Made by a program: the position numbers and the translations under genes. Positions 7,953 to 32,492 of a stretch of 40,246 bases of DNA are shown piece after piece. Source of the DNA: Candidatus Dojkabacteria bacterium (GTDB taxonomy: Bacteria; Patescibacteriota; Dojkabacteria; SC72); NCBI GenBank assembly GCA_040773125.1, contig JAXGWV010000003.1, positions 1 through 40,246 of the forward strand. Reading direction: 5' to 3'. Numbering within the stretch: the first letter of the stretch is position 1; each line of letters begins with the position of its first letter. Below the pieces are notes generated by a model that saw only the letters and a list, made by a program, of their open reading frames with translations, did no database searches and was not told the DNA's origin.

Positions 7953-7963
7953 ACTCTTGTTTG

Positions 7964-7972: not shown

Positions 7973-7977
7973 TTAAA

Positions 7978-8170
7978 AGTGATGAACCAGTAATCACTGG
8001 GGAGCTAGGGAAAGAAAGATATATTTTATATATTTAGTAGAATCCCAAACCGTATTAGGTTGTAAGGGAGTATTAGAAATAATACTCTGAAGTAGGGTGG
8101 TAACGCGGATTTATTCGCCCCTTTGCGAGTGGTTAGAAAGGTTCTAACTATTTGTAAGGGGGCTTTTTAT
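7978..8170 (+). ncRNA. ileS T-box riboswitch with ultrashort Stem I
   Basis: CCAGT-AATC-ACTGG hairpin with Ile specifier AUC (7993-7995) in the loop; Stem II GGGA-AAGAA...AGTA-GAA-TCCC; antiterminator AGGG-TGGTAAC-GCG...CGCCCCT. Confidence 0.92.
8117..8168 (+). terminator. T-box intrinsic terminator
   Basis: 22-bp stem including G-U pairs (GCCCCTTTG...TAAGGGGGC) followed by TTTTT; shares CCCCT with the antiterminator. Confidence 0.9.
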
Positions 8171-16106: not shown

Positions 16107-18791
16107 TTATTTTACTACTTTTATAAATATTCCTTCCTCTTGATTAATCTTTAATGAATCTCCAAAGATATAGTTACTTTCATCTTTGAATGTGTAATCA
16201 AAGAGACCTTTTTCTTTCTGCCATTGTCCTATCTGTTTAATTTTATTGAATTCTAAATTTTTTAATATATCTACAGAAGTAGTGCCTTTTCCGTCAAATA
16301 CAAAAGAGGGTACTAAGTTCCATCCTGCGGATTCAAGGATATTAGATGGAGAGATTCTGTAGCCTTTTACTGAGAATTCTGTTTCGTGTAAAGAAGAAAC
16401 CATGTACGATTTGCCCGATTTAAGGGAGAAATCATTTCCTTTTATACTTCCCTCTTCATATTTAACAACATGTACCCATTGTCCACTTTGATATTCTCCC
16501 ACGGCTATTACCCTTTTATCTGATATATTTATTAAGTCATAAGCACTTTTAGGAACTAGTGGATTATCAACATCAATTACTTCAAGAGGGCTTATAAAGC
16601 TAATTCCTTCCCTAATTACATATTTAGTACTCTCCATATGACAATTTTCAGCACTAATATCTGAGCGTATTACACCAGAGCACTCATAAGGCATTCTCAT
16701 TGAAAGAGAATTGTTGTAGTAACAACATACACTTTCAGTTTTGATAACTTTTTGATCGGTAGTGCAAGTAAATCCGTTTTTGGCATCCTTTTGAACCGTT
16801 TTGTTATTCCAATAGCAGATACATCCTTTTGGATTTCTACAGTACAAATCTTTATCTGTAACTTCAAGAATGGTTTTTTCCTCAGGAGGAGGAGTAGGAC
16901 CTTGTTCGGTACATACAAGTCCACATTCTACATCTTTAAAGTAATTTTCTGGTTTAATTGTTCCCTTAAAACATTCACATCCCCCAACATCTTTACAGGT
17001 TTCCCCTACCTTAATATCAGACTCCCCTGGGATGTTATCGTTTCCAGTACATTGAATACTGGGGTCTGGTGTAGGGTTAGGGCTTGGGTTCGGATTTGGA
17101 TTTGGGTTTGGTGTAGGGTTTTGTTCGGTACATACAAGTCCACACATTACATCTTTAAGGTAATTTTCTGGTTTAATTGTTCCTTTAAAACATTCGCATC
17201 CACCGACATCTTTACAAGTTTCTCCTACCTTAATATCAGACTCTCCAGGGATGTTGTCATTCCCAGTACATGGAACATTAGGATCTGGTTCCGGTTCTGG
17301 GTTGGTGTCCGACTTCCATTTGATAGTACATTTACTATCTGAAAAGGCCTTATTCTGTAAATGATAGGCATCACAAGTTTGAACACTTCTTGTTGAGCGG
17401 CATTGAGTATCTTTGATGTAACAAAGTGGGTCATTTTTACATTTCTCTTCTGATGTAAACATCCCTTCTCTTGCACAAGATTGGTATTTTTTAGTAGTTT
17501 TTTCACATACATTATTATTTGGGTTAATGTACCAACAGTAAGAGCCATCTTCAGGTGGCTGTGGATTAGTTCCTGAAGGATTTCCATTACAATCTCTATA
17601 CACACTGTTTGTAACTTGTTTGGATCTATCGCAGGCACTAGAACTCTTTGAAACATTCCATGGCCAACTTGGAAGAGTACCACCAGTTAGCCAGTTGTAA
17701 TAATTTCGAATTTCAGTGATATATGCTTTCCCATGTGCAATATTTTCATCATTACAGTACCCTCTTGCATACTTTGTAGCCCATCTCTCTTCTTCCGAGA
17801 TACCTTTGTCTGTGCAGTACCCTGAGATATAGTCGTCAGCCATTTGTACTGAAATCAATCGCTCCAATTGTTTTGTAAAATCTCTGCTTGGCACTCCACC
17901 TCCATTTATACCGAAATCTTGAACATTAGAATATTTAGCATACATACTTCCTGCTGATTCATGGACCCACAATGTTATTGGAAGTGCAGGATTTACTCCG
18001 GCTTCTATAGATTGACAATATACATCACTGTAACACTCTTGTGCATAGTGTCCTTTACAGCCTCCAATTAATCGATCAAGTAAGCTTTGTGTTTGGCTCT
18101 TAGTTGGAAGATATTGAGTATTGGTTATTGATATATTAGTTTTACAATTTGCTCCACTTTCTGCATATACAGGAGAGATAATCCCAAACAAGCTGGCCTC
18201 TAACTCATCTTGAAGAATAGCAGATGGAATAAACCGTGCATACTCAGTAACAGTATATCCACTACCTTTCAAATCTAATGCCCAAGTTCCATGGTAACTT
18301 GTGTAAACCATATACTTTTTCCCACCATTTTCTATCAAAATGAAATTACCTTTTTCTGATGTCCCTGTTTTTATATTGGGTAATTCTACTTTTGTGTTGT
18401 ATTCTTCAGTAGTAAATTCTAAATCAAAATCCCATTTCTGTTTTGGGGATTGAATACGAAATGTATATGTAGTGTCAGGGCGGAGTTGAGATAGAGTGGC
18501 TTCATAGAAGTAATTATCTTCTTTCATATTTTTGTAGAGGTTAGAATCCATCACTGAAATGTAAGGCATGTTTCTTTCTTTCTCTTTGTAAGAGAGAATA
18601 CTGTAAACACCCTCATTGTTTTTCCAATATATTGTTGCACCTGAAGATCCAATGTTTGTTACAACAATATCTGTGGGTTTTTCTTTGAGGATTTCAAAAA
18701 GCTTGTAATTTTGTACATAAAGCCAGGATGATGCAAAGAGAAGTACTAATGCAAATACAAACTTTAGTAAAAATATGTTCTTTTTCTTCAT
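16107..18791 (-). CDS. Large Cys-rich secreted/surface protein: FN3-like N-terminus, lysozyme-like domain, duplicated Cys module, Pro linkers
   Basis: Signal/TM helix; LRPDTTYTFRI; GVNPALPITLWVHES; PEPEP/PNPNP linkers; many cysteines. Confidence 0.8.
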   Translation of the reverse strand: MKKKNIFLLKFVFALVLLFASSWLYVQNYKLFEILKEKPTDIVVTNIGSSGATIYWKNNEGVYSILSYKEKERNMPYISVMDSNLYKNMKEDNYFYEATLSQLRPDTTYTFRIQSPKQKWDFDLEFTTEEYNTKVELPNIKTGTSEKGNFILIENGGKKYMVYTSYHGTWALDLKGSGYTVTEYARFIPSAILQDELEASLFGIISPVYAESGANCKTNISITNTQYLPTKSQTQSLLDRLIGGCKGHYAQECYSDVYCQSIEAGVNPALPITLWVHESAGSMYAKYSNVQDFGINGGGVPSRDFTKQLERLISVQMADDYISGYCTDKGISEEERWATKYARGYCNDENIAHGKAYITEIRNYYNWLTGGTLPSWPWNVSKSSSACDRSKQVTNSVYRDCNGNPSGTNPQPPEDGSYCWYINPNNNVCEKTTKKYQSCAREGMFTSEEKCKNDPLCYIKDTQCRSTRSVQTCDAYHLQNKAFSDSKCTIKWKSDTNPEPEPDPNVPCTGNDNIPGESDIKVGETCKDVGGCECFKGTIKPENYLKDVMCGLVCTEQNPTPNPNPNPNPSPNPTPDPSIQCTGNDNIPGESDIKVGETCKDVGGCECFKGTIKPENYFKDVECGLVCTEQGPTPPPEEKTILEVTDKDLYCRNPKGCICYWNNKTVQKDAKNGFTCTTDQKVIKTESVCCYYNNSLSMRMPYECSGVIRSDISAENCHMESTKYVIREGISFISPLEVIDVDNPLVPKSAYDLINISDKRVIAVGEYQSGQWVHVVKYEEGSIKGNDFSLKSGKSYMVSSLHETEFSVKGYRISPSNILESAGWNLVPSFVFDGKGTTSVDILKNLEFNKIKQIGQWQKEKGLFDYTFKDESNYIFGDSLKINQEEGIFIKVVK
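16902..17270. repeat. Two 150-bp intragenic direct repeats (16902-17051, 17121-17270) encoding a 50-aa six-Cys module
   Basis: CTGNDNIPGESDIKVGETCKDVGGCECFKGTIKPENY(F/L)KDV(E/M)CGLVCTEQ occurs twice. Confidence 0.95.
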
Positions 18792-18832
18792 TGCTGATTA
18801 ATAATAGCAGATTCAGTTATTTGTGTATATCT

Positions 18833-19417
18833 TTAATGAGATTCTAAATCAGAGAAGTCTCTTAACTCCTCCCATTTTTCTTCAAACTCATCTCGAGATT
18901 TAGCCTCTTCTACAAATTTATCGTATTGAGAATGAGAATTTATTCTTCTGTAATATTTAATTGGACACCAGTATCTTTCAGTTCTCGCACCAATTTCAGT
19001 ACAGAATCGAAAAAGATTGTTTACATAGCTACAGTATATGCAATTAAATTTTTCCATAGGATTGAGTAAACTTAATAGCTTTCTATCGTATACAAAGTAT
19101 TCGCTTTGTTTGACAGTTGGTATTCCGTAGAGTCTAAAACAAACTTGTTGGTATATTTGGACAGAGATATGAAGGATTACAGAGGGGATTATCATTGAAT
19201 ATATAAAGGGCATACTTAATAAATATTTCCAATTGAATTTTACTTTTGGAAACTTAATTCGTTTAACAATATTCTCTTCTTCAAGTATTTTATTAATATT
19301 TTCATCAAAAGTAGTACTAATTTTCTCTTTTAATTCTGTAAGTTTTATATATGCATCATTGTTTTTGGAGATTTCATTAATGTTCTCTTTTATCTTTTCA
19401 AGTAGGTTTTCTTTCAT
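18833..19417 (-). CDS. Conserved hypothetical membrane protein with CxxC
   Basis: Hydrophobic stretch then NCIYCSYVN and RTERYWCPIK. Confidence 0.75.
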   Translation of the reverse strand: MKENLLEKIKENINEISKNNDAYIKLTELKEKISTTFDENINKILEEENIVKRIKFPKVKFNWKYLLSMPFIYSMIIPSVILHISVQIYQQVCFRLYGIPTVKQSEYFVYDRKLLSLLNPMEKFNCIYCSYVNNLFRFCTEIGARTERYWCPIKYYRRINSHSQYDKFVEEAKSRDEFEEKWEELRDFSDLESH

Positions 19418-19525
19418 ATTAGTAATGTAAAAATTATTAGTTTATGCAAGGTATTATAGACTTTAATTGAAGATTTTACGATGTATATGTTTAATATCCA
19501 CCCAATTATCTAATATAATGTGTAT

Positions 19526-20257
19526 ATGGATGTTATTTATACAATTGATAGGGAGAAGGATATGAGTATGGTCTATACTATGCTTAAATCTGATGATCTT
19601 TCTGATAATTTGCAAAGAACAAAAAGAATGGGTATTAGTAGGCAATTGTTTAATAAGATAGCCGAGAGTAGCTCATATAATGAAGTAGAAAATGAAATTA
19701 ATGAACTTTACAATACAAAACTTTTAAATGACAAAGAACTACTTCTCTCTAAAACAAAACTATATCAGAGTAATTGGAATTTAATAAATGATATTTTCGA
19801 ACAAGAAACTGAAAGAGTAGTAGGAATGAAATGGAAATATGAAAAATACTATGTGATAGTATCATTGTTTCATCCTGGTGTTAGTAATATGTTGGGAGAC
19901 ACAGTATATCTCTGGATTTATGATGATTTAGATATCCATTTAAGGATAGCTGCTCATGAGTTACTAATGACCCATTTATGGCAATTCTTTTATAAAAACT
20001 TTCCAGAGGAGGATATTAATAATAATTGGAATAAATATTGGTCGGTAAATGAAATAACAACGACATTTATTTTAGGATTAGATAGTAAATTAAATAATCT
20101 ATGGTCAGATAGGATGAAGGGATACAAAAACTTTTTACAAAATTATCCTCAATTAAAAGAAGGAAGGGATTTATTAGTAAACAAGTATAAGAAGAGAAGT
20201 AGCTTTAAAGACTTTATTGATTATAGTCTACCAATGTTTACAACTCCGCGTATATGA
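19526..20257 (+). CDS. Hypothetical protein with degenerate HExxH-like motif; stop codon lies inside repeat R1
   Basis: IAAHELLMTH; TATAAT 6 nt before ATG 19526. Confidence 0.65.
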   Translation: MDVIYTIDREKDMSMVYTMLKSDDLSDNLQRTKRMGISRQLFNKIAESSSYNEVENEINELYNTKLLNDKELLLSKTKLYQSNWNLINDIFEQETERVVGMKWKYEKYYVIVSLFHPGVSNMLGDTVYLWIYDDLDIHLRIAAHELLMTHLWQFFYKNFPEEDINNNWNKYWSVNEITTTFILGLDSKLNNLWSDRMKGYKNFLQNYPQLKEGRDLLVNKYKKRSSFKDFIDYSLPMFTTPRI

Positions 20258-20324
20258 CATATTCCTTAACCTGAAGTTGGATTATGGAATTAATATATTC
20301 AAAATAGATTCGTTGATATATAAT
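20244..20324 (+). repeat. att-like module R1
   Basis: CTCCGCGTATATGACATATTCCTTAACC; first 7 nt identical to the tRNA-Asn 3' end (31914-31920); TATAAT at offset +75. Confidence 0.85.
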
Positions 20325-20331
20325 GCTAAAT

Positions 20332-20871
20332 ATGGAAATAGAAAAATTAGAATTAATTGATTTGCCAAAGACTGACGAATTACAAGTTACTACGAGGTTA
20401 TTTCCTATACCAAGTGCTATGGAAGATGGAAAGATACTAATACAAGAGATGAAAATAAATGGGAAGCTTAGCCCTGATATAGCTCTAATTGACGCTTCAG
20501 TTAATACTCCTGTCCAGTATTATGATGGAGTAAGTAAAATAACAGATATTTTTTACTCTACAACTGACAATAGACCAGTTGGTGTTATTTTAATGTCTCC
20601 GGAAGGAGAAATATCTTTGAAAGTATATAATCCCAAGACAGATGGTGGTCCTAGAGGATATTCAGTGACCAAGGGATGGACTATGCAAACAATTATTCCA
20701 GAAGGGACAACTTTAAGGTTCTTTGATTATCACTCTCCTAAGGGGTATGCAGAAAAGGAAGGGGATAAAATGTATGGGGAAACTGTAGTATCTACGGTAA
20801 CAGATGAAAAGGTATTAGAGAAATTTAAAGGAGCAGAAAAAGAGTTGTTAGATTATATGAAAAAGCTTTGA
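20332..20871 (+). CDS. Hypothetical protein (cassette 1 cargo)
   Basis: ~180-aa ORF; ATG 7 nt after the TATAAT of R1. Confidence 0.7.
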   Translation: MEIEKLELIDLPKTDELQVTTRLFPIPSAMEDGKILIQEMKINGKLSPDIALIDASVNTPVQYYDGVSKITDIFYSTTDNRPVGVILMSPEGEISLKVYNPKTDGGPRGYSVTKGWTMQTIIPEGTTLRFFDYHSPKGYAEKEGDKMYGETVVSTVTDEKVLEKFKGAEKELLDYMKKL

Positions 20872-20879
20872 GGAAAAAA

Positions 20880-20960
20880 CTTCTTGTATATGACATATTT
20901 CTGGACCTTAGAATATTTGTTAGCCTGAACTCTCAAGAGAATGACAAATTATTGTATAAT
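20880..20960 (+). repeat. att-like module R2
   Basis: CTTCTTGTATATGACATATTTCTGGACC preceded by an A-run; TATAAT at offset +75. Confidence 0.85.
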
Positions 20961-20989
20961 CTTTAATAAAATGTTATTACCTTACCAAT

Positions 20990-21670
20990 ATGACAAAACC
21001 CTTCCCAGCTGATGAAAGTAATTATATATTTACAGAGGGTATAGATTATTCAAAGACATCCGCAAATTCAATATGGGGAGATGAGGATATTTCTACCCAG
21101 AGTATGTTAAAGAAATTGGTTAAATCTGATAGCAAGTGGGTTAATCTTGCTTCGGGTGATGGAAGATACAACTGCTTGATTGCAAATATTGCAGGTGAGG
21201 TTACAGATGTAGATATTGATGAAGGCGCTTTAGAAAAACTTTTTTCTAATACTCCAGAGAATATTAGGAGTAAGCTTGTATTAAAATCATTTAATATTGT
21301 TAAGAAATTCCCTTTAGAAAGTAGTGCATATGATGGTTTATTTAGCTCTGGTACTCTTTATCTTTTTCCAGATGATGTATTTATGAATATTGCTAAAGAG
21401 ATATCAAGGATATTGAAGGTAGGAGGGAATATCGCATTAGAGTGGGCTATAAATATTAAAAGGATTTCTCCAACAGGAGAACCAGTTATCTTTGGTACGG
21501 AGCCTTTATATAATAGGGAGAGAGCAAGTAATGTTATACAGAAGGCTTTTCCAAATTTTAAAGTTAAGTTTATAGATGGAGAAAAGGTGTATTCTGATGA
21601 ATGTGAAGCCAACCCTCCATATCATTTTTACTGTGATACATTATTAATAGTGGGGGAAAAAATTCAATAA
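20990..21670 (+). CDS. Class I SAM-dependent methyltransferase (cassette 2 cargo)
   Basis: VNLASGDGR motif I, VDID, FPLESSAYDG, EISRILKVGG. Confidence 0.85.
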   Translation: MTKPFPADESNYIFTEGIDYSKTSANSIWGDEDISTQSMLKKLVKSDSKWVNLASGDGRYNCLIANIAGEVTDVDIDEGALEKLFSNTPENIRSKLVLKSFNIVKKFPLESSAYDGLFSSGTLYLFPDDVFMNIAKEISRILKVGGNIALEWAINIKRISPTGEPVIFGTEPLYNRERASNVIQKAFPNFKVKFIDGEKVYSDECEANPPYHFYCDTLLIVGEKIQ

Positions 21671-21673
21671 AAA

Positions 21674-21709
21674 CTCCCCGTATATGGCATATTCCTGAAC
21701 TTTAAGTTC
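21674..21709 (+). repeat. att-like module R3
   Basis: CTCCCCGTATATGGCATATTCCTGAAC, 3 nt after the methyltransferase stop. Confidence 0.85.
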
Positions 21710-21712
21710 TCT

Positions 21713-23017
21713 TTACCAAAGGGGGTTTTGTTCGTATATTGATTTTGTGGAGGGAGAGAGTACATTAAGAAATATATTTCTTGGTTCCTCTTCTCTTACT
21801 ACATTCCAACAAGAAAGAAGGATAGAAGCTTGGTTTGGAAAAATTTGGTCTCTTTGTATTTCTCCTGTATGAGTATTTACTGTGTCACCATCTCCAAAGA
21901 ATGGGTGAGTTAAACTTGGGAATTCCTGGTGGAGGCGTTTTAATGCATTAAGTGTATCTTGTGGATATACAATTCCCATATTTATTAGGGCTGAGATTGT
22001 TACAATAGGTTGAGGAATATATGGATCTGTAGATTCTCCTGTTTGTGGAACTCTGTATTCATAATATCTTCCATCTGGTCCCAATCCTGCAGAATATCCA
22101 TAGTGTCCATAGTTGTGTTGTTCTCCATACTCTCTTTGTAGTTGTATTGTACTTTTTATTGTTTCCTCCCACTGAGGACTAAATTTATCTTCTGGGATTA
22201 TTAGGGTTGGCCATCCTAGTGCAAAGTATTCTCCATCCCATGTACGTCTTCCTTTTCGTTGTTTTGAATCTTTAAAGAAACTATTTTCTGTTCGCCTGTT
22301 TATTAACTTACTCATTTCATGTAATATCTCATCTTCGCATAATAGATAGGCGATTCGTGCTTCTGAGAGAACATCATATTGCCAAGGTTCAAAACATTTG
22401 TCATTTATATTGTAGCATCCATTAAAAAACCCAGTTGAATGGTCAAACATAAAAGGTAGATCCATTTTATTGAGGTAAGTTTCAATAGAGTCAGAATATT
22501 CAGGAAATTGTACACCTGTCATTTTACTAAAAGCTATTAACCATGCCATGTCTACAGTAGAAATTTGTTGTTTTATTTTTATTTCTGTATTTGGCCACTG
22601 TTTTAGTATTGTTCCTGTTGATGGTTGTATAGAGTTAACAAATAGACCCTTATCTTCTCTTGTTTTAATAAAGATTTCAGGATCTTCTGTCATTTTTATA
22701 ATTGTAGTTATAGTTTTTCCTAATCTTTCATATGTTTCTTGTTCTGAAATAAAGCCCATTGAATATGCCCCACCTATAGAAGCTAAGAGAAACCCTATAT
22801 TTGTAGGACTAGTTTTATCTATTTTAGAAACTTCCCCCGTAGGGATACCATCATAAAGATGATGATGTAATTGATCTGAAGGGAGGCCTGTATCATTGTA
22901 TGTCATTTCACTAATGCTGTTCCAAGCCATCTTCGCATATTGAAGATATTCCTCTTTTATTTCAGGTGGGAGAGTTTCTATTACTTCTTTATCGTATATA
23001 GGTGATTCTAGACTCAT
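21713..23017 (-). CDS. DUF3131/glycoamylase-like glycoside hydrolase related to beta-1,2-glucan enzymes (cassette 3 cargo)
   Basis: TGLPSD, KTSPTNIG, ISTVDMAWL, YDVLSEARI motifs. Confidence 0.7.
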   Translation of the reverse strand: MSLESPIYDKEVIETLPPEIKEEYLQYAKMAWNSISEMTYNDTGLPSDQLHHHLYDGIPTGEVSKIDKTSPTNIGFLLASIGGAYSMGFISEQETYERLGKTITTIIKMTEDPEIFIKTREDKGLFVNSIQPSTGTILKQWPNTEIKIKQQISTVDMAWLIAFSKMTGVQFPEYSDSIETYLNKMDLPFMFDHSTGFFNGCYNINDKCFEPWQYDVLSEARIAYLLCEDEILHEMSKLINRRTENSFFKDSKQRKGRRTWDGEYFALGWPTLIIPEDKFSPQWEETIKSTIQLQREYGEQHNYGHYGYSAGLGPDGRYYEYRVPQTGESTDPYIPQPIVTISALINMGIVYPQDTLNALKRLHQEFPSLTHPFFGDGDTVNTHTGEIQRDQIFPNQASILLSCWNVVREEEPRNIFLNVLSPSTKSIYEQNPLW

Positions 23018-23078
23018 TATTGGTAATTATAGATGAAAATATAAATTATAGATAGGAAACTTGTGGAGGTTTAAAAAA

Positions 23079-23189
23079 CTCCTTGTACTGAGTATTGTGC
23101 GAACTGAAATAATAACATTGTTGTTGCAAGATGTGGGTAATGAAGAGGTGCAGTCTTTAGTTAGAAATATACTCATTAAAGAGGCTTAA
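23079..23189 (+). other. R4 / putative attL carrying the orphan 3' end of the serine recombinase gene
   Basis: AAAAAA-CTCC-TTGTACTGAGTATTGTGCGAAC; open 36-codon frame LLVLSIVRTEIITLLLQDVGNEEVQSLVRNILIKEA* in register with the recombinase CTC codon. Confidence 0.75.
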
Positions 23190-23267
23190 TAGAACTTTAC
23201 TTTTTTAAGTTAGAGATCCCCTTATATTAGATAGTATATGGGAATATAACTATGTATAACTAGAGTA

Positions 23268-24161
23268 TTAAATACTCATTTCTCCATTGTAAATCTTTTT
23301 GATTAAGTCTTTAGCATATTCTAATTCTTCACCATTGCTTACAAAGACACCTGTGTTTCCTGTCCCCCAGTGTCCTTTGCCTTTGACATCCTTTACATTA
23401 GATTTTGGATTGTCAATATCTTCATAATCTAAAGATAAGTAAACATCTAATTTTTCCTTATTAATTACTATGCAAGCCAAATTCTTAATTGTTTTATATG
23501 CCCAATAATTTTTTAGTTCCTTCTTTTGTATGTCATCACCCAAGTTAAGGATATATTCATCTAACTCTTCAGTATAATCAACAATGTTTTTATTAGCAGT
23601 TTTTAGTTTGTATTCAATTCTGTCATGAGGATACTTGTCACCAGAGATATGTGAACTTCTAGGTTTTTCACTTACTGCTGATGCCAACTGTATCATCAGG
23701 AAGTCGTTTTCAAATAAGGTATATCTAATTAACTCTATGTTTCTATTAATCTGTTTTATAGCATTATCATCATATTTATTGAAATCAGTTGCTATACATA
23801 ATAATCTAGGATTATCCCAATCAATATCTACTTTTGTACCGATTTTCTCTCTACACAGAATATCAAAATCAGCTTTGTGTTCCATGAACCAATCTAGGTA
23901 GAAGAGACCCTGATTAATAACATTGGTGTTAGAGTCTAGTTTGTATTCTATAATTACAGGACAGTTATTTTCATCCAATCCTAGTGTATCTACTCTTCCA
24001 TTATCAATAATATATTCAGAGGCTAAAAATCTTACTCCAAAGAGCTCTTCTAAGTTCTTCTCCACAATATCTTGTATCTGCTTTTCTAACCTTAGGCTTT
24101 TAGCTTTTATCTGTGTACTTTTATTTGTTGGAGAGATATTAAAGAGTTTTATTTCTGACAT
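23268..24161 (-). CDS. NucS/DUF91-like PD-(D/E)xK endonuclease with DUF5655-like C-terminus
   Basis: LEKQIQ..E, GRVDTLGLD, IIEYK, QGLFY; C-terminal GHWGTG. Confidence 0.8.
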   Translation of the reverse strand: MSEIKLFNISPTNKSTQIKAKSLRLEKQIQDIVEKNLEELFGVRFLASEYIIDNGRVDTLGLDENNCPVIIEYKLDSNTNVINQGLFYLDWFMEHKADFDILCREKIGTKVDIDWDNPRLLCIATDFNKYDDNAIKQINRNIELIRYTLFENDFLMIQLASAVSEKPRSSHISGDKYPHDRIEYKLKTANKNIVDYTEELDEYILNLGDDIQKKELKNYWAYKTIKNLACIVINKEKLDVYLSLDYEDIDNPKSNVKDVKGKGHWGTGNTGVFVSNGEELEYAKDLIKKIYNGEMSI

Positions 24162-24348
24162 TTATATCTATTCTTAATTTACATTAATGTTGTAATTATA
24201 TATCATTACTCATATTTATAAAAATAGGCTTAAGATATTAAAACCTATTAAATATAACCATTGCTATATTATTGGAAGGAGTTAGACTTAAAAAATTCAT
24301 TAATATGAAGTATACTAGCAATGTAATTACACGAAGGAATGTAAAGAT

Positions 24349-26928
24349 ATGGCCAAAGAAGCTCAAGCAAGAATTAAAATTAATGAACTGTTAACTGCTT
24401 CAGGTTGGAGATTACTTGATGACCCAGAAAAAGGGAGAGCTAATGTTTCTTTAGAGAGTAATGTAAAGATTGAAAATAATCCAGGGGACAATTTTGAAAA
24501 TGTTGAAACTAGAAATGGATTTGTAGACTATCTCTTGTATGATGCAAATAACTATCCAATATGTGTCTTAGAAGCAAAATCAGAAGATAGACATCCTTTA
24601 GATGGTAAAGAACAGGCAAGAGACTATGCTAACTCCTTAGGTTCAAATGTAAGGTACATAATACTTTCTAATGGAAACATGCACTTCCTTTGGGATATGA
24701 AGCTAGGAAATCCTACTTCCATATCTCATTTTCCAACACTAGAATCATTAGTATCCTCAAAAGATTTTGTACCAGATAAAAATAGGTTAGTTAATACACA
24801 GGTTGGAAGTGATTACATAGCTCTTACTCAAGATCCTGATTACAAGCTTGATCCTAGGTGGAATACAGAAGAAGGCAGAAATCAGATGATTGAAAGAGAA
24901 GGATTGAGATTTCTAAGACCATATCAGTTAAATGCAATTATAACTGTTCAAAAAGCTGTAGCAGAAGATAAGAATAGATTTTTGATGGAAATGGCAACAG
25001 GTACAGGTAAGACCTTGCTATCTGCAGCCCTGATTAAACTCTTTCTTAAGACTAAAAATGCTAGAAGAGTACTCTTTCTTGTAGATAGAATTGAATTAGA
25101 AAATCAAGCAAAAAGGAACTTTGATGCATATTTAAAACCTGACTTCACAACAGTTGTTTACAAGGAAGCTAGGGATGAGTGGAAGAAAGCAGAAATAGTT
25201 GTAACAACAATACAGAGTATCTCTTCAAACAACAAATACCTTAGGCTCTTCTCTCCAAATGACTTTGATTTAATTATCTCTGATGAGGCACATAGGTCTA
25301 TCTCTGGAAACAGTAGAGTTATCTTTGAGTACTTCATAGGATACAAGCTTGGTTTAACTGCTACCCCTAAGGACTATCTTAAAAAGGTTAATCAAGAAGA
25401 TTTAGCTGAACAGGACCCAAGAGAACTAGAAAGAAGAATACTTCTATCTACTTACAAAACTTTTGGATGCGAAAGTGGGGAACCAACATTTAGATATAGT
25501 CTTGTAGATGGTGTAAGAGATGGCTTTTTAGTTAATCCTAGAACAATAGATTGTAGAACAGAGGTTACAACTCAATTACTTTCAGAGGAAGGTTTTGTTA
25601 TGACACAAGATCCAGATTCAGAAGAGGGAGAATATATTAGTACTGATGAGCAAGGAAACCAAGTGGTATATAAAGCAAGAGACTTTGAAAAAAAATTCTT
25701 TAGTGAAGAGACAAATAGAAAGTTTGTAGAAGCCTTTATGCAAAATGCTCAAAGAGATCCAATATCTGGGGAGATTGGTAAATCAATAATTTTTTGTGTC
25801 AGTCAGAGACATGCATCAAAGATTACAAATCTACTTAATGAATATGCTATGCAAATGTATCCAGATAAATACCAGTCAGACTTTGCCTTACAGATAACCT
25901 CAAATGTACAAGATGCTCAGCTTTATTCAGTACAGTTTGCTAATAATAATCTAAGAGGGCTATCAAAGTTTCTTGATGGATACAAATCAAGTAAGACCAG
26001 AGTATGTGTAACTGTTGGTATGATGACAACAGGATATGATTGCGAGGACCTATTAAATGTAGCTCTTCTTAGGCCAATATTTTCTCCTACAGATTTTGTA
26101 CAGATAAAAGGTAGAGGTACAAGAAGATTCAGATTCAGATATTCACAAAGAGATGGTATGGCAGTTAATGAAATTGTAAAAGATAAGAAGTATTTTAAAC
26201 TCTTTGATTTCTTCGCTAACTGTGAATACTTTGAAGAAGAGTATCCATATGATGAGATATTACCGTTACCAAAACAGAGAAAAGGAACTACAGCAGATCC
26301 TCGTGGTCCATTTGGACCTATAGGAGGAAAAGATTCTGAAGGTATCTATGGTGGAACTGATGTAATAACGGAATTTAATGAAATAGAAATAGATGAAAAT
26401 GGTATGAGAATTGATAGAGAGCTTTACTCAAGTAAATTTGAGGAGAAGCTTAAAGAAGTGTATACAGAGATTCCAGAGTTTAAAGAGGCTGTAGATACTA
26501 ACGACTATGAGACAGCTCAGTATGTTGTTACATCTCAACTCTTTGATAAACCAGAGGAGTATTACAATATGGATAGATTAAGAGAGAGTTACAAGAGTGA
26601 TAGAAGAATATTCTTATCAGATATTTTAGAGAAGGTCTTTAAAGGAAAGGCATTCAAAACAAAGAATGATTTAGCAGAGGAAGATTTCCAAAACTACTTG
26701 GTAGTTAATAATGTTCCTGCTGAAAACTTCTATAATGTAAAAGAGTTCTTTAAACTATATGTTGCTGATGAGACTTTTAGAAGGGATATAAATACGAATG
26801 AAATAAATAAATATGCAAATGATCCTAAACTTTTTGAAGTAATAAATAAATTGGGGAAGGAGAATATCCAGTATGTTACAGACTATGTAAAGGACAATGT
26901 TCAAATAAATAAATATTACAGCCAATAA
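24349..26928 (+). CDS. hsdR: Type I restriction enzyme R subunit
   Basis: VDYLL..VLEAK nuclease motif, LRPYQ, MATGTGKT, DEAH, LTATP, TTGYD, QIKGRGTR. Confidence 0.93.
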   Translation: MAKEAQARIKINELLTASGWRLLDDPEKGRANVSLESNVKIENNPGDNFENVETRNGFVDYLLYDANNYPICVLEAKSEDRHPLDGKEQARDYANSLGSNVRYIILSNGNMHFLWDMKLGNPTSISHFPTLESLVSSKDFVPDKNRLVNTQVGSDYIALTQDPDYKLDPRWNTEEGRNQMIEREGLRFLRPYQLNAIITVQKAVAEDKNRFLMEMATGTGKTLLSAALIKLFLKTKNARRVLFLVDRIELENQAKRNFDAYLKPDFTTVVYKEARDEWKKAEIVVTTIQSISSNNKYLRLFSPNDFDLIISDEAHRSISGNSRVIFEYFIGYKLGLTATPKDYLKKVNQEDLAEQDPRELERRILLSTYKTFGCESGEPTFRYSLVDGVRDGFLVNPRTIDCRTEVTTQLLSEEGFVMTQDPDSEEGEYISTDEQGNQVVYKARDFEKKFFSEETNRKFVEAFMQNAQRDPISGEIGKSIIFCVSQRHASKITNLLNEYAMQMYPDKYQSDFALQITSNVQDAQLYSVQFANNNLRGLSKFLDGYKSSKTRVCVTVGMMTTGYDCEDLLNVALLRPIFSPTDFVQIKGRGTRRFRFRYSQRDGMAVNEIVKDKKYFKLFDFFANCEYFEEEYPYDEILPLPKQRKGTTADPRGPFGPIGGKDSEGIYGGTDVITEFNEIEIDENGMRIDRELYSSKFEEKLKEVYTEIPEFKEAVDTNDYETAQYVVTSQLFDKPEEYYNMDRLRESYKSDRRIFLSDILEKVFKGKAFKTKNDLAEEDFQNYLVVNNVPAENFYNVKEFFKLYVADETFRRDINTNEINKYANDPKLFEVINKLGKENIQYVTDYVKDNVQINKYYSQ

Positions 26929-26930
26929 TT

Positions 26931-29378
26931 ATGTTAAATGGAGATACAAAAAGAAAAATAAAAAATGCAAGAGATATTCTAGTAGGGAAGATTCCTGTTC
27001 CTACAGCACAAGTAGAACAGATTACTCTTGCACTTATGTATAAGTTCATGAGTGATATGGATGAACAAGCCAAGAAGTTAGGAGATAAGACTAGCTTCTT
27101 TATGGGAGAGTATGAAAAATATTCATGGGATAAGATAACAGACACCTCTTTGTCAGCATATGATAGGGTGGCTTTGTATTCTGAAGGATTAGAGAAGATG
27201 AATAACAATCCCAATGTACCACAGCTGTTTAGAGACATATTTAAAGGGGCTTTCTTGCCCTTTAAAGACCCAGAAACATTAAAGCTGTTCTTAGACCAGA
27301 TAAATGAAATTGAGTATACTCAAAGTGAAGATTTAGGTGATGCATATGAGTACTTATTATCTGTAATGGGCTCTCAGGGCGATGCAGGGCAATTCAGGAC
27401 CCCTAGACACATCATAGACTTCATAGTAGATATTGTAGATCCTAAGAAGGAGGACAAGATACTAGATCCTGCCTGTGGTACTGCTGGATTCCTTATCTCT
27501 GCATTCAAACATATTCTAAAACACAATACCACTAAAGATTCTAAGATTCTGGGAGATGCACTTTCTCCTATGGATAGAAGAAACTTAACAAAGAATTTTG
27601 TAGGCTATGATATTTCTCCTGAGATGAGAAGATTATCATTGGTGAATATGTATTTACATCAGTTCCCAGACCCACAGGTATATGAATATGATACCTTAAC
27701 TAGTACAGATCATTGGGATGAAGATTTTGATTGTATATTAGCTAATCCTCCTTTTATGACTCCTAAAGGTGGTATAAGACCTCACAAGAGATTTGCAATA
27801 CAGGCAAATAGGTCAGAAGTCTTATTTGTAGATTATATAATGGAACATCTTAGTACTTCTGGCAAAGCAGGTATTATTGTTCCAGAGGGTATTATTTTTC
27901 AATCTTCTAATGCATACAAGAATTTAAGAAAGTTACTTGTAGAAGATAATTATCTTTGGGGTGTAGTATCACTTCCTCAGGGAGTATTTAACCCATATGC
28001 GGGTGTTAAGACTAGTGTATTACTTTTAGACAAGAATATTGCCAAGAAGACTGATAATATCTTGTTTGTAAATGTGGAAAATGATGGTTTTGATTTAGGT
28101 GCACAGAGAAAGGAGAATGGGAAGAATGATTTACCTAAGATTTTAGATGGTTTGAAGAAGTACAAGAAATGGATATTGAATGATGAAGAAATCAAGGAAG
28201 ACGAATTATTTAATACCCAAATCATTGGAAAAAGTAGGATTAAGGAGAGTGGAGATTACAATTTAAATGGTTATAGGTATCAAAATAGCGAAAGAGGTAT
28301 TTATGTGAAGGGAAAATGGGAGAGTGTCTTGTTAAGAGATATTCTTGAAGATGTGAGATATACTCACAAGATCAAAAAAAGTGAGTATCTACCAGAGGGG
28401 GAATATCCAATAATTGATCAATCAAGTAATTTTATAGCAGGCTACTGTGATAATAAAGATTTTCTTTACAATGTAACCAAACCAGTTGTTATATTTGGTG
28501 ATCATACTAGAGAGCTTAAGTATGTTGATTTTGATTTTGTATTAGGTGCTGATGGTGTAAAGATTCTTCAATTTAAAGAAGTTGCTTCAGCAAAGTATTT
28601 ATACTATGTGCTAAAAAACACTCCAATCAAGAGTTTGGGTTATTCCCGTCATTTCAAGGAATTAGTCAGGTTAGAAATTCCTCTTCCCCCAATAGAAGAA
28701 CAAAAGAAAATAGTAGAAGAACTTGATAGATACCAAAGGGTTATAGATGGAGCAAGAATGGTTATAGATAATTGGAAGCCTGAGATAGAGATAAACCCAG
28801 AGTGGAAAATAATTAAATTAAAAGAGGTATGTGCACTTGTAAGGGGAGTAACTTATTCAAAGGATGATGAAGTTGAGAATGGAGGTAAAATAGTGCTTAG
28901 GGCAAACAATATTGATTTAATGGGGGGGCTTAATCTTACTGACTTAAAATATATTAAGAAAGAGCTAAAAGAAACTCAGAAGCTCAAAAAGGGAGATATA
29001 TTTATTTGTATGTCTAGTGGAAGTAAATCTCATATAGGCAAAGTTGCTTTCATAGACAATGATACAGACTATTATCTTGGAGGATTTATGGGTTGTGTAA
29101 GAGCATATGATAATATAAATGCAAAATATCTTTATTACATACTGAATTCACAGGCATTCAACAAATATTTAAGAGATCAGATTAGTGGTGTGAATATAAA
29201 TAATATAAATCAGGGAATTTTTTATAATTTTGGCATACCTCTTCCTTCTATAGAGGAACAAGAGGATATTGTAGAGAAGTTATCCAAGCTGGAAGATTCC
29301 GTTTCAAAGAATAAAGAGATAATCAATTTCTTTGAAAAGAAATCTGCAGATGTAATTTCAAAAATTTTCAATGGTTAA
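26931..29378 (+). CDS. hsdM: Fused type I N6-adenine methyltransferase and specificity subunit (HsdM-HsdS)
   Basis: GQFRTP, DPACGTAGFL, ANPPF, then two TRDs each ending in IPLP(P/S)IEEQ..IV. Confidence 0.92.
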   Translation: MLNGDTKRKIKNARDILVGKIPVPTAQVEQITLALMYKFMSDMDEQAKKLGDKTSFFMGEYEKYSWDKITDTSLSAYDRVALYSEGLEKMNNNPNVPQLFRDIFKGAFLPFKDPETLKLFLDQINEIEYTQSEDLGDAYEYLLSVMGSQGDAGQFRTPRHIIDFIVDIVDPKKEDKILDPACGTAGFLISAFKHILKHNTTKDSKILGDALSPMDRRNLTKNFVGYDISPEMRRLSLVNMYLHQFPDPQVYEYDTLTSTDHWDEDFDCILANPPFMTPKGGIRPHKRFAIQANRSEVLFVDYIMEHLSTSGKAGIIVPEGIIFQSSNAYKNLRKLLVEDNYLWGVVSLPQGVFNPYAGVKTSVLLLDKNIAKKTDNILFVNVENDGFDLGAQRKENGKNDLPKILDGLKKYKKWILNDEEIKEDELFNTQIIGKSRIKESGDYNLNGYRYQNSERGIYVKGKWESVLLRDILEDVRYTHKIKKSEYLPEGEYPIIDQSSNFIAGYCDNKDFLYNVTKPVVIFGDHTRELKYVDFDFVLGADGVKILQFKEVASAKYLYYVLKNTPIKSLGYSRHFKELVRLEIPLPPIEEQKKIVEELDRYQRVIDGARMVIDNWKPEIEINPEWKIIKLKEVCALVRGVTYSKDDEVENGGKIVLRANNIDLMGGLNLTDLKYIKKELKETQKLKKGDIFICMSSGSKSHIGKVAFIDNDTDYYLGGFMGCVRAYDNINAKYLYYILNSQAFNKYLRDQISGVNINNINQGIFYNFGIPLPSIEEQEDIVEKLSKLEDSVSKNKEIINFFEKKSADVISKIFNG

Positions 29379-30024
29379 AAATATACAAAAGCAAAAAACA
29401 TTAAAAGATTTTATTAAAGAGACAACATTTAAACCTGACTCTACAAGAGATGATAATTCCTTCTTTAGTGCATATTATGGACCGAAACCATATGGAGAAT
29501 CTTTAGATGATATTTTCAAAATAATTAGAGATATTTATGATAACAATAAGAAACCAGATGACTTATTTTGGGACTTTACTACAAACATTTTACATACATA
29601 TATGGAGTTTGAAGATCACATTGCTTTAAAGATTTCATCAATAGAGAAATACTTTGATCCAGACCCTCCTCTAAGTGCTATATTAGAGTTAGAATCTTCA
29701 ATTTCCCCAATTTACTATACAGGAAGTAAATGTGCCAAATATCTACTTGCAAACTCAGGAGGCAAACTAACGAATGATGATATAGAGTTTCTAGCAAAAT
29801 ACAAAGGGACAAGAAATAAGATTTTTGAACACAACTTAGATCCAGAGGAATATCCTTTTGTGGTAAGGGTCTTTCATTTTTCAGTATTTTCAACAGACTC
29901 AGAATTAGAGATAGAGTTGATTAACTCTAAAAATGAAAAAGAAGAAAGAGGTTTTATTGACTATTATGATGATAATTACAAGTTAATAGAAATTTGTATT
30001 AGATATTTGAAGTCAATTAAGTAA
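29371..30024 (+). CDS. Hypothetical protein with HEPN-like RxxxxxH motif
   Basis: RNKIFEH at residues 148-154; start overlaps the hsdMS end. Confidence 0.6.
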   Translation: MVKNIQKQKTLKDFIKETTFKPDSTRDDNSFFSAYYGPKPYGESLDDIFKIIRDIYDNNKKPDDLFWDFTTNILHTYMEFEDHIALKISSIEKYFDPDPPLSAILELESSISPIYYTGSKCAKYLLANSGGKLTNDDIEFLAKYKGTRNKIFEHNLDPEEYPFVVRVFHFSVFSTDSELEIELINSKNEKEERGFIDYYDDNYKLIEICIRYLKSIK

Positions 30025-30083
30025 GAAAAATACCTAAAAAACTAGGGAAAAACTTGGAAAAACATTGATATTTTTAACAAAAA

Positions 30084-30296
30084 ATGGCAAAAACATACAC
30101 AAATCTAAAGAAAAACCAATCAACATCTGAACTAAGGAAATTCATATCCTCTATCATAGACATAGCTACTAGACCACAAATATTCTCTCAATGGATTAAA
30201 GAAAAGAAGTCCTGGAGACACATTCTTAATGTACCTGAAAAGATAAAAGTAAGAGAGGAATTTGAAATAAAGAAGATTCCAAAAGAAGAAAAATAG
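30084..30296 (+). CDS. Small basic protein upstream of the recombinase
   Basis: 70-aa Lys-rich ORF; position only. Confidence 0.5.
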   Translation: MAKTYTNLKKNQSTSELRKFISSIIDIATRPQIFSQWIKEKKSWRHILNVPEKIKVREEFEIKKIPKEEK

Positions 30297-30324
30297 TTTT
30301 TCGGCGCTTATAGGGGATTGAAAC
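30296..30324 (+). repeat. Solitary CRISPR-repeat-like sequence
   Basis: GTTTTTCGGCGCTTATAGGGGATTGAAAC: GTTT start and ATTGAAAC end; single copy. Confidence 0.4.
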
Positions 30325-30365
30325 AACAACATTCTTTAGCATAAAAATAGCTAAAAACAACAAAA

Positions 30366-31952
30366 ATGGAACAAAATACCTCAAAAATTAAAGTATTTGC
30401 ATACCTTAGAAAATCTACTAAGCAAGAGAGAGAAGGTACACCTGAGAAACAACCCAACTCCCTTAACTATCAAAGAAGAGTAGTTAAAGAGATTGCAGAG
30501 AGGAACAATCTAAAGATTGTTAACCAATTTGAGGATAAAGAGTCAGGATACAAAGCATATGTAAGGAAAGACTTTAATAGAATGTGTGAGCTACTAGATG
30601 AACAGGGCTCAGAAGGTGAAATTAAAGGTATAGTTTGTAGTGAACACAACAGATTAGCAAGAAACTTTGGAGATGGAGGCAGGATACTCTGGTATTTACA
30701 GAATGGAGAGATAGAAGCTGTGTATACCCATGACAAAATATTCTCTAACAGTAGCAGTGATCAAATGATGTTGGCTATTAATTTTGCAATGGCTAAGAAC
30801 TCTAGTGATGAAACAAGCTATAGAATGAAGCAAACATGGAAGAGTAAAGCTATTGCAGGAATGCCACCAAACCAAAGAATAGTTGGATATAAATATGTTG
30901 GAAACAAAGGTCAGAAAGTATGGGTTAAAGACCCCAAAACAGCCCCATTGATTGTAAAAGTATTTGAAACATATGCAACTGGAGAATATACGATAGAAGA
31001 GTTGGCAAAATATGCTGCTTCAATAGGACTTGTTAATAAAAGAAATGATAATAAACCATATGGAGAAAATACAGTAAGAGAATGGTTATCAAAGAAAGAA
31101 TATATTTGTATCTTTGAGTATGAAGGGGAAAGACATAAAGGAATGTATCCTAGGATGATAAGTGATGATTTATTCTACAAAGTTCAAGATGTTCTTCTAC
31201 TTAGATCTCATAAGAGGGGAAAAACCAAAAACATGTATGCATACTCTCCTAAACTTATTAAGTGTGGTAAGTGTGGTGAATATATGACAGGAGACATTCA
31301 AAAGGGAATAGTGTATTACAAATGTCCTCACAGAAAGGAGCCATGTAAGAGTAATCCTAATGAAAGGCTTCCTCACCTTAAAGAAACTTTTGTTGATGAA
31401 AGTATTATGAAGAAGTTAAAACAGATAGAAATATCAGAAGAGAAATGGAAAGAACTCTCTGCATTAGTTAAAGCAAATTATCAATATGAGGTAGCTCAAC
31501 ACGAGGAGGATATTAGAGAGATGAGAACTAAGATAGGTTATGAAGAAGGTTTTAAGAAACAGTATTCAAAAGCTATATCAGAGCTAAGGATTAAAGGTAC
31601 ATTGACTAAGGAAGAAGAAGAGGAATTGAAAGGCTATCAAGATTTAATATTAGATTGTAACAAAACTATTGAGTTGTATCAGGAAGCAATAATCAAAGCT
31701 AAGGAAATTATGAATGAGATTCCATTTGAAATGGAAGGGTTCCTAGAGTCTTTGAAGGTAGCTAGTGCAAGATTTAACCAAGGTACACCTGCTAATAAAA
31801 GGGTGATTGTAGAGACCCTTTGTGCGAACTTAATATGGGATGGTAAAAATATTGTCTGGAATTGGAAAAACAAGTATAAGAAACTAATAAATCAGGAAGA
31901 AGACATAGATTGGCTCCGCGACCAGGACTCGAACCTGGAACCAAACGGTTAA
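30366..31952 (+). CDS. Large serine recombinase (resolvase + recombinase + zinc ribbon + coiled coil)
   Basis: YLRKST catalytic motif, ESG, NRLARN, CGKCG...YYKC..C; last 13 codons (WLRDQDSNLEPNG) are antisense tRNA. Confidence 0.93.
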   Translation: MEQNTSKIKVFAYLRKSTKQEREGTPEKQPNSLNYQRRVVKEIAERNNLKIVNQFEDKESGYKAYVRKDFNRMCELLDEQGSEGEIKGIVCSEHNRLARNFGDGGRILWYLQNGEIEAVYTHDKIFSNSSSDQMMLAINFAMAKNSSDETSYRMKQTWKSKAIAGMPPNQRIVGYKYVGNKGQKVWVKDPKTAPLIVKVFETYATGEYTIEELAKYAASIGLVNKRNDNKPYGENTVREWLSKKEYICIFEYEGERHKGMYPRMISDDLFYKVQDVLLLRSHKRGKTKNMYAYSPKLIKCGKCGEYMTGDIQKGIVYYKCPHRKEPCKSNPNERLPHLKETFVDESIMKKLKQIEISEEKWKELSALVKANYQYEVAQHEEDIREMRTKIGYEEGFKKQYSKAISELRIKGTLTKEEEEELKGYQDLILDCNKTIELYQEAIIKAKEIMNEIPFEMEGFLESLKVASARFNQGTPANKRVIVETLCANLIWDGKNIVWNWKNKYKKLINQEEDIDWLRDQDSNLEPNG

Positions 31953-31985
31953 CAGCCGTTCGCTCTACCATTGAGCTATCGCGGA
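31911..31985 (-). tRNA. tRNA-Asn (GUU) with CCA
   Basis: TCCGCGA...AACGG-CTGTTAA-CCGTT...CCAGG-TTCGAGT-CCTGG-TCGCGGA-G-CCA; TATAAT upstream at 31998-32003. Confidence 0.97.
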
Positions 31986-32018
31986 TTAGCTGGGTCTATT
32001 ATATCCATCTCCTCTTCA

Positions 32019-32492
32019 TTATTCAATATCTTCATCTTCAAGATCATCATAGTATCTGAAATCAAAGAAATCTTTTAGGTCTTCAAATGATCTACGACTA
32101 TCACATGGGAAGAGTGTATATATAATGGAATTGCCCTCTCCTATCTCAAATTGCTCACAGTATGGCACAGATTCCTCATCTATTGTTTGATGCATTTTGA
32201 TAGAGTGTTTAATCTGGTTGATAATACCCTTTGTTAATTGTAAGTCATAGACAGGAATCCTCTCTTCGTTGTTTCTTGCTCTAGTTTGGATATTTCCTAA
32301 AAGTCCATCGACTAGTAGATATCTAGCTGTAGGAGTAATCCTTCCATATTGTCTGAATTTTTCTATATAAATAAATGAACCATCTGGAAGTTTCTTTCGT
32401 TCAAAAAATCGTTCATATCCCTTTAGGAGTTCAGCTGGAGAGTATGACTCTCCGTCACCATCTTCATAATCATCCTCATATTCGATTGGCAT
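32019..32492 (-). CDS. Acidic hypothetical protein
   Basis: 157-aa ORF with no recognised motif. Confidence 0.6.
   Translation of the reverse strand: MPIEYEDDYEDGDGESYSPAELLKGYERFFERKKLPDGSFIYIEKFRQYGRITPTARYLLVDGLLGNIQTRARNNEERIPVYDLQLTKGIINQIKHSIKMHQTIDEESVPYCEQFEIGEGNSIIYTLFPCDSRRSFEDLKDFFDFRYYDDLEDEDIE

Follow-up and report, generated by a model that had tools for sequence, protein, structure and literature searches.

The 3' end of tRNA-Asn as a probable hot spot for large serine recombinase elements and single-gene units in a Candidatus Dojkabacteria bacterium

Here, we describe a row of single-gene units and a recombinase-bearing island at the tRNA-Asn gene of a Candidatus Dojkabacteria bacterium. 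The stretch of DNA analysed (the window) is a complete contig of 40,246 bases (JAXGWV010000003.1) of a 674,246-base assembly with 70 contigs and roughly 33% G+C (GCA_040773125.1); public records assign related loci that carry these sites to Candidatus Dojkabacteria (WS6). We suggest, with a probability of roughly 0.78, that the end of this tRNA gene is a hot spot for elements that carry their attachment site, attP, within their own large serine recombinase (LSR) gene, and that such elements accrete there together with units that hitch-hike on them. The LSR gene is split between the two ends of the island, a relative has the empty site, the breakpoints between strains are exact and the units occur in shuffled contexts.

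A split recombinase gene as the origin of the repeats

The array is marked by four sites, R1 to R4, at 20244, 20880, 21674 and 23079. A preliminary description, made from the letters alone, had recognized them as related, had placed them all in one orientation and had read them as the sites of an integron-like cassette array. The relatedness and the common orientation stand. The As said to precede every site are found as an A-run ahead of R2 to R4, and R1 is preceded by ACAA. With up to three mismatches, the pattern derived in that description matches the plus strand of the window at R1, R2 and R3 and nowhere else (shuffle expectation 0.02; three matches in 0 of 100 shuffles). These are also the sole matches in the whole assembly, in which the reversed-pattern control gave none; the motif is thus not scattered and has its three copies in one locus. 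R4 is too diverged for the pattern and is a genuine fourth site of another subtype, as the alignment to an LSR homologue and the contig joints described below indicate.

Several lines of evidence identify the repeats as pieces of recombinase genes. First, the only LSR of the assembly (30366..31952) has Resolvase, Recombinase and zinc-ribbon domains (Pfam, 3.4e-18, 1e-10 and 8.6e-07) and matches the integrase family phrog_95 (8.8e-50). It aligns to residues 1-522 of the homologue P0018 with 47% identity, and the alignment ends at WLR; the 36 codons from 23079, at R4, match residues 521-555 of P0018 with 71% identity (E 7e-15). Based on these alignments, the resident LSR gene is split, with its body at the tRNA and its tail 8.8 kb away at R4. 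Second, the R1-R3 subtype is found in joined form in the metagenome contig L080, in which an unbroken LSR open reading frame of 521 residues (...DWLP-VYDIFLNL...; around the site, ...KPFDVILKSQDSHDWLP-VYDIFLNLRIRV...) crosses the motif to the stop codon. The LSR of relative G002, which is 99% identical to that of L080, instead runs into tRNA-Asn (...DWLR-DQDSNLEPNG). Third, in relative G030 a complete 6.9-kb element places an LSR of the R1-R3 type next to the tRNA, and its opposite end carries the motif as attL. From the anatomy of L080, G002 and G030 we conclude that attP lies inside the LSR gene and that each R is an attL, composed of the old tRNA flank and the P' arm. Thus, as had been proposed, the sites represent recombination junctions linked to the 3' end of tRNA-Asn; however, they are ordinary LSR attL junctions and not attC-like, and their conserved half is a displaced LSR coding tail.

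The coding character of this half is visible in the sites themselves. At R1-R3, the frame CTC-CSC-GTA-TAT-GAC reads L-(R/P/L)-V-Y-D-I-F-L-N-L-K-F... and reaches a stop after 20-36 codons; upstream of the motif, the frame of relatives is open for 0-73 codons only, with no start codon. The same peptide with a short upstream frame occurs in relatives of several genera and families, always with CTCC(C/G)C ahead of it. Over codons 8-14, which lie beyond the searched pattern, variation is highest at the third position (0.52 vs 0.35 and 0.28) in a set of 36 distinct sites, about five of which are chance matches in unrelated organisms without the tRNA-type core. The possibility that R is a regulatory element, a terminator or a small gene lying between genes by chance would fit the intergenic position of the sites and their short palindrome, ATATG-N-CATAT. 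However, all three genome copies are in a single locus, the frame has no upstream start codon and is co-linear with the C-terminus of intact recombinases, and 71-base windows of R1-R4 folded on both strands gave no hairpin, attC-like or other, beyond the level of shuffled sequences (z -1.49 to +1.25). We regard this possibility, of negligible probability, as contradicted by the single-locus copies, the hairpin result and the match to intact recombinases. R as a tRNA-like pseudogene, considered after alignment to the tRNA, was rejected because the T-arm cannot be drawn and the frame is coding. A genome scan also gave matches outside the candidate phyla, in Prevotella, SAR202, Lachnospiraceae and other organisms, but these have no CTCC core and represent other proteins or chance hits; five matches in a scan of viral contigs included none with a tRNA-type core.

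Integration would leave its trace in the C-termini of these enzymes. Among the best 45 homologues of the LSR, 18 end in the ...DSN... peptide encoded by the tRNA T-arm (...WLRDQDSNLEPNG), 16 stop one or two residues past the conserved Leu-Arg/Pro and 7 have tails of 10-50 residues, in classes corrected by eye (false DSN assignments of P0014 and P0015 were moved, and P0037 and P0045 were added). In the structural model of P0018 (mean pLDDT 81.8), the core domains are confident, WLR lies in a low-confidence linker (516-526), the tail forms two helices (523-537 and 542-556), and the zinc-ribbon region has two long helices (360-410 and 421-467), as in a coiled-coil insert. As modelled, integration would exchange this C-terminal two-helix appendage and not a core domain; that the exchange of tails affects enzyme function is speculation. 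The subfamily with the R1-R3 tail (VYDIF...) is 25% identical to the resident recombinase, so the latter, which had been associated with the whole array, is judging from sequence probably not that of R1-R3. Two homologues with about 40% identity to the LSR, P0031 and P0026, have records named Micrarchaeota archaeon and Nevskiaceae; P0031 ends in a peptide that looks tRNA-encoded, and P0026 ends one residue past WLR. The LSR clade may extend to DPANN archaea, or those bins may be mixed.

The crossover can be placed within four bases. Unoccupied native tRNA-Asn genes of relatives do not encode CCA, and an A-run follows (plus strand ...AAACTCCGCG...), and those occupied by an LSR read ...TGGCTCCGCG..., that is TGG, a Trp codon, and CTCC. 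The attL sites have an A-run or TGG to the left of CTCC and an element-specific CC, GC or TT to the right; among the left arms of 33 distinct sites, 21 are A-type, 9 are TGG-type and 3 are other. Because the flanks of attL, attB and occupied sites differ on both sides of CTCC, the exchange takes place within CTCC, and this position in turn implies that the element replaces only the final acceptor-stem bases and adds the encoded CCA. At the far end, the displaced tRNA fragment comprises no more than a few terminal bases (CTCC plus flank), and the tRNA itself is intact. For the R1-R3 subtype, the site types are represented by L080 (attP), G014 (attB), R1-R3 and about 30 other sites (attL), and G002 and G022 (attR). 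For the resident island, attL, attR and an empty attB were found, with one crossover in the shared bases. In the native tRNA-Asn 3' flank (23060-23082; L030 near 12730-12755), a GGAG can pair with the core CTCC across the A/T run, and several, not all, left arms have G-rich blocks 8-16 bases left of the core; these blocks may be part of a B-type half-site or of a tRNA terminator.

The features of the locus are as follows.

18833..19417, minus strand: conserved left chromosomal neighbour, 194 residues, anchor of the array; homologues precede the arrays in L062, L078, L079, L057 and L053
19476..19505, plus strand: R0, possible oldest junction with a decayed core, co-linear with the degenerate first site of L079 and L062
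19520..20257, plus strand: unit 0 cargo, 245-residue open reading frame of unknown function; its stop codon lies within R1; within the inserted region and missing at the G014 empty site
20244..20360, plus strand: R1, core CTCC 20244-20247, displaced LSR tail of 36 codons (20250-20357) and stop
20323..20871, plus strand: unit 1 cargo, 182-residue protein of unknown function without Pfam, PHROG or PADLOC match
20880..20966, plus strand: R2, core CTTC 20880-20883, 26-codon tail and stop
20990..21670, plus strand: unit 2 cargo, class I S-adenosylmethionine-dependent methyltransferase, 226 residues (Methyltransf_11, 5.9e-08)
21674..21742, plus strand: R3, core CTCC 21674-21677, 20-codon tail and stop
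21713..23017, minus strand: unit 3 cargo, Glycoamylase/DUF3131-like glycoside hydrolase, 434 residues (family match)
23079..23189, plus strand: R4, attL of the resident island, core CTCC 23079-23082, 34-codon tail of a resident-type LSR and stop
23268..24161, minus strand: island cargo, NucS_C+DUF5655 protein of the candidate defence family PDC-S18 (3.1e-116)
24349..29378, plus strand: island segment between the PDC-S18-like gene and the two small genes (family searches)
29371..30296, plus strand: two open reading frames of unknown function, 217 and 70 residues, directly upstream of the LSR gene
30366..31952, plus strand: LSR, 528 residues, Resolvase+Recombinase+Zn_ribbon_recom; the tRNA gene provides the last 13 codons
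31911..31985, minus strand: tRNA-Asn(GTT), 72.3 bits; attR now and attB when empty, crossover within CTCC 31914-31917

Family searches bear out the gene order given in the preliminary description, i.e., three single genes between the sites (the 182-residue frame, the methyltransferase and the minus-strand glycoside-hydrolase-like gene) and then the recombinase island, which runs from 23079 to the tRNA-Asn with the PDC-S18-like gene, a type I restriction system, the 217- and 70-residue frames and the LSR. The 245-, 182-, 217- and 70-residue frames had no match in PHROGs or PADLOC; by its position, the 70-residue frame is a candidate directionality factor. The tail at R1 is homologous to the tails ahead of the 182-residue gene in L062 and L078. 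Alone, R0 is not significant in alignment to R1, with an equal or better score in 1114 of 2000 shuffles. To the left of the array, at 16107-18791 on the minus strand, lies a gene for an 894-residue protein with fibronectin-III and purple-acid-phosphatase-N domains, which in relatives L025, L027, L029, L034 and L041 is represented by two to four partial copies that lie in tandem and have diverged (28-59% identity); there thus seems to be another variable region next to the hot spot.

Insertion and exchange of units at the tRNA-Asn gene

Comparison of relatives supports serial, polarized insertion at the tRNA-Asn 3' end. The closest relative that has the locus on a single contig is G014, where a homologue of 18833-19417 (86% identity) directly adjoins tRNA-Asn, in the order left neighbour, native flank (A-run and CTCC) and tRNA without encoded CCA. 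From this empty site it follows that the whole 19.4-31.9 kb region of the window was inserted. In G008, the 182-residue gene adjoins the tRNA; L079 has two units and then the tRNA, and in L062 at least three further units come after these same two, with six to seven sites on one contig that bound single genes. The site farthest from the tRNA is the most decayed one in the window (R0, weak), L062, L079 and G030. Altogether, G014, G008, the comparison of L079 with L062 and the population contigs agree with the earlier proposal that units are added at the tRNA, that the tRNA is regenerated each time and that the newest unit is next to it; in the relatives, the cargo is neither fixed nor syntenic. 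In G030:C3 (L095, 951-1155), and also in G069:C11 (about 4631-4966), the anticodon loop of tRNA-Asn is interrupted by an insert of about 250 bases; the insert in G030 scores 65.9 bits against the group I intron family RF00028, and ARAGORN misses this tRNA.

Strains in natural populations differ at the same positions. Public runs from nine studies (digesters, wastewater and unlabelled metagenomes) contain the window stretch, and we compared contigs of four of these runs over 18800-32100; these are contigs and not reads, and assembly drops rare forms. First, the island is absent from a 1391-base contig of run X14, in which 23078 is joined to 31914 and 8835 bases are skipped (short side 187 bases); a contig of run X6 has the same joint with weaker support (short side 22 bases). 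In these contigs, the hydrolase unit adjoins the tRNA. Second, the hydrolase unit is absent from an 11,145-base contig of X6, which runs through 19389-21668 and then 23074-31938 and skips 1405 bases; the two sides of the 21668/23074 joint have only the 9 bases AAAAACTCC in common. Of the 2280 bases of this contig left of the joint, 2 differ from the window, as do 59 of the 8865 on the right. Third, loose ends lead into other contexts, i.e., at 21674 (X6) to another left neighbour of the hydrolase unit, at 23074 (X10) to another left neighbour of the island and at 31914 (X13) to an empty, G014-like site. R3 is thus a breakpoint of both the 1405-base joint and a loose end in the X6 contigs. All well-supported breakpoints are on CTCC cores, and the island and the hydrolase unit are present or absent independently of one another. 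Joints 20989-29113, 27736-27864 and 30814-31905 have short sides of 22-34 bases, and nothing is drawn from them.

The units also behave as modules across genomes. The unit with the 182-residue gene is 636 bases long in the window, 641 in L062 and 638 in L078, and among these three genomes identity is 75-97% from R1 to the end of the R2 arm only, with chance level beyond. The same cassette is 83-88% identical in G008, L053, L061, L062 and L078, where its neighbours differ, and homologues of the methyltransferase are at other array positions in L052, L062 and L079. Lengths range from 465 to 1555 bases for the 11 distinct intervals without a recombinase in the window and related loci, compared with 6.9 and 8.8 kb for the elements that carry an LSR. 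Units on the opposite strand are the hydrolase in the window and several in L062, L078 and L079. The 182-residue protein is the most recurrent cargo, with reverse-strand copies in L095 at 218-880 and 1570-2106; in G030, its gene is the first after the tail of the complete LSR element, and a second copy lies directly outside the element. Since this gene would adjoin the recombinase gene downstream in the circular form, a role of the protein in the element's own biology is possible.

These data bear on the idea that the units are inert scars, i.e., immobile deletion leftovers of full-size islands, and that strains differ by homologous recombination or slippage between short repeats. The preliminary description had offered eroded remnants of older tandem islands as its own alternative, and in part this holds: LSR 3' stubs of 33-51 codons are found beside the tRNA in G018, G020, G007, G002 and G019, and the remnant of an LSR end that follows a cargo gene in L052 is only about 10 bases long. 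Deletions between short repeats can occur independently of RecA, as described in one source (PMC5426353). As a whole explanation, however, erosion probably does not suffice. A module of about 640 bases has the same two ends in at least three genomes with different neighbours, 21 of the 33 sites have a native-type flank and not an LSR stub, the well-supported breakpoints fall on the core, and island and hydrolase unit vary independently. We therefore consider inert scars improbable.

A model of accretion and hitch-hiking

We favor a model in which an LSR element has attP in the 3' end of its LSR gene and would cross over within CTCC, which is common to the acceptor end and the Trp-Leu codons. 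Integration would set the LSR gene beside the tRNA, where its open reading frame would finish on tRNA sequence, and the element would supply the last tRNA bases and CCA. At the far end, integration would strand the native tail of 20-36 codons, joined to the old tRNA flank (attL, here R). Because the tRNA and the target are rebuilt at each insertion, later units would stack on the tRNA side and older ones would be pushed outward. R1-R3 would then be the attLs of one LSR subfamily (VYDIF...) and R4 that of the 8.8-kb defence island, which belongs to the other subfamily. The units without a recombinase would be mobilized in cis: a visiting LSR element would excise from a distal attL, carry the intervening units along and integrate elsewhere; it may later leave via its own attL, and the units would remain with a native-type flank against the tRNA. 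The recombinase-bearing elements require only canonical LSR chemistry; the hitch-hiking of recombinase-less units is probable from the arrangements compared.

Several observations weigh against this model. First, hitch-hiking leaves unexplained how a single gene with a tail and an A-run/CTCC flank first originated, and 21 of 33 sites are A-type. Second, the sole LSR of the genome is of the R4 subtype, and the cell has no obvious enzyme for R1-R3. Third, inverted symmetry in the attP arms is weak: the L080 arms were matched or exceeded by 88 of 2000 shuffles and those of the resident island by 417 of 2000. Fourth, L080 (8 kb) is not a clean circle; it was rejected as a circular episome because an exact terminal repeat is absent and the identity between its ends (1-594 and 7480-8076) is 91% over 594 bases. 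The contig resembles a tandem of two related type III restriction-modification elements or a collapsed mix of variants, and its intact open reading frame may come from two tandem elements rather than from a free episome. Fifth, no circular junction of a unit, a composite or the island was found among the contigs of the four runs, a weak negative given that rare forms are dropped. Finally, presence or absence between strains could in part come from homologous exchange of whole arrays.

Some of the same observations are relevant to a true cassette system, an analogue of integrons, in which circles of a single unit with one R would be inserted at the tRNA site in a freely reversible manner by an LSR acting in trans. 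The right half-site alone, i.e., the tail arm or the tRNA arm, would set the partner, and the products would again be substrates. The units look the part: each recombinase-less unit has the tail arm on its left and the A-run and CTCC on its right, such that insertion would regenerate R and a native-looking target; the units are 465-1555 bases long and mostly hold one gene; one cassette is found in different orders; and the presence of a recombinase-less unit varies between backgrounds with 99.9% identity (2 of 2280 bases differ). However, LSRs join attP to attB, and their recombination of attL with attR requires a directionality factor; LSRs are not known to recombine an attL-type site with attB. 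Moreover, the cognate LSR subtype is absent from the genome, and every arrangement observed can also be produced by integration and excision of whole elements. The free single-cassette circles anticipated in the preliminary description were not seen in the four-run contigs, nor was an R-by-R joint of like sites. We therefore regard a true cassette system as possible but unlikely.

A related and tentative suggestion, to which we assign a low likelihood, is that a serine recombinase captures genes in an integron-like manner, with recombinase-less single-gene cassettes entering and leaving tRNA-Asn via the R sites, and that the state of the element determines which of two tail isoforms the enzyme has, the native two-helix tail as long as attP is intact and a 10-residue tRNA-encoded one after integration. 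If so, the tail swap would be a built-in directionality switch that replaces a separate directionality factor or works with it.

Relation to known systems and implications

The finding is of a known kind, namely LSR integrative elements with tandem accretion. The Ccr proteins of the staphylococcal cassette chromosome (SCC) are LSRs, and SCC composite islands at orfX/rlmH of staphylococci (with ccrAB or ccrC; ACME, COMER and pseudo-SCC) share with the array the tandem modules at the 3' end of one conserved gene and the short direct repeats. The preliminary description knew of no serine-recombinase equivalent; in outline, these islands are one, since their modules without ccr are mobilized by ccrAB. 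Passages of one source describe SCC modules that lack a recombinase, are mobilized by the ccrAB of a neighbour and are excised alone or as a composite (PMC7029739). The present array differs in its small units, which are single genes (0.5-1.6 kb) at a tRNA gene as opposed to modules of tens of kilobases next to a protein gene, in a repeat that derives from the recombinase gene itself, and in its host, which belongs to the candidate phyla radiation and has a genome of about 0.7 Mb.

Serine-integrase elements and prophages (phiC31, Bxb1, A118 and SPbeta) have the same three-domain enzyme with a long coiled coil, short att sites and a crossover in a few shared bases without a long target duplication; they differ in that here a tRNA gene is the target and attP lies inside the recombinase coding region. 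No directionality factor was identified for the element in the window, and the small open reading frames upstream of its LSR have no family match. The 2014 Islander paper states that no use of tRNA genes by serine integrases was known (PMC4383910). In a large LSR survey, "tRNA" is absent from the main text (PMC10083194); the target tables of this survey and of the TIGER/Islander resource might list LSRs that target tRNA genes. As in tRNA islands of the Islander type, an intact tRNA is at one end and a displaced fragment at the other, but here there is no tyrosine integrase.

Parallels also exist among tyrosine-recombinase systems. The cis-mobilizable elements (CIMEs) and tandem accretions of the ICESt1 family and others include att-bounded units without their own recombinase, as do units 1-3 here, and passages of one source describe newcomers that integrate at the regenerated site and composites that can move as one (PMC5704250). 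However, those systems use tyrosine recombinases and longer identical repeats, and cis-mobilization here is a probable process only. The "suicidal" integrases of the SSV type, from archaeal viruses and plasmids, likewise have the site inside the integrase gene, which is split on integration, and a tRNA target; passages of one source describe such self-disrupting recombinases as exclusive to archaea (PMC8371274). Those are tyrosine recombinases of archaea, whereas the present enzyme is a serine recombinase of a bacterium, in which only the C-terminal two-helix appendage past a flexible linker would be swapped and the core domains stay on one piece. With integrons, the array shares a fixed insertion point, polarity with the newest unit nearest, mostly single genes and varied cassette order; it differs in having no IntI tyrosine recombinase, no attC hairpins, cassettes on both strands and, in the contigs, no single-cassette circles. 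In other candidate-phyla lineages, highly expressed ccrB-like recombinases are reported in passages of one source that give no sites (PMC9938205). A partial literature search gave no description of an LSR/tRNA cassette array. Three aspects thus look new: the tRNA target, attP in the recombinase's own gene in a bacterium, and rows of single-gene, recombinase-less cassettes.

Altogether, these findings would mean that a whole LSR clade, whose members carry candidate-phyla-radiation labels and in one case a DPANN label, targets the ends of tRNA genes, a niche long ascribed to tyrosine integrases. The swap of an appendage alone upon integration leads to a testable idea on directionality control. 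Four site types defined for two LSR subfamilies, with a crossover window of four bases, provide a basis for trying integration tools in organisms in which genetics is lacking now. For a bacterium with a reduced genome of roughly 0.7 Mb and few mobile elements, one tRNA locus would be a cheap store of variable genes, which holds small cassettes as well as defence islands (type I and type III restriction systems and the PDC-S18 candidate) and in which the row of units differs among near-identical strains in digesters and wastewater.

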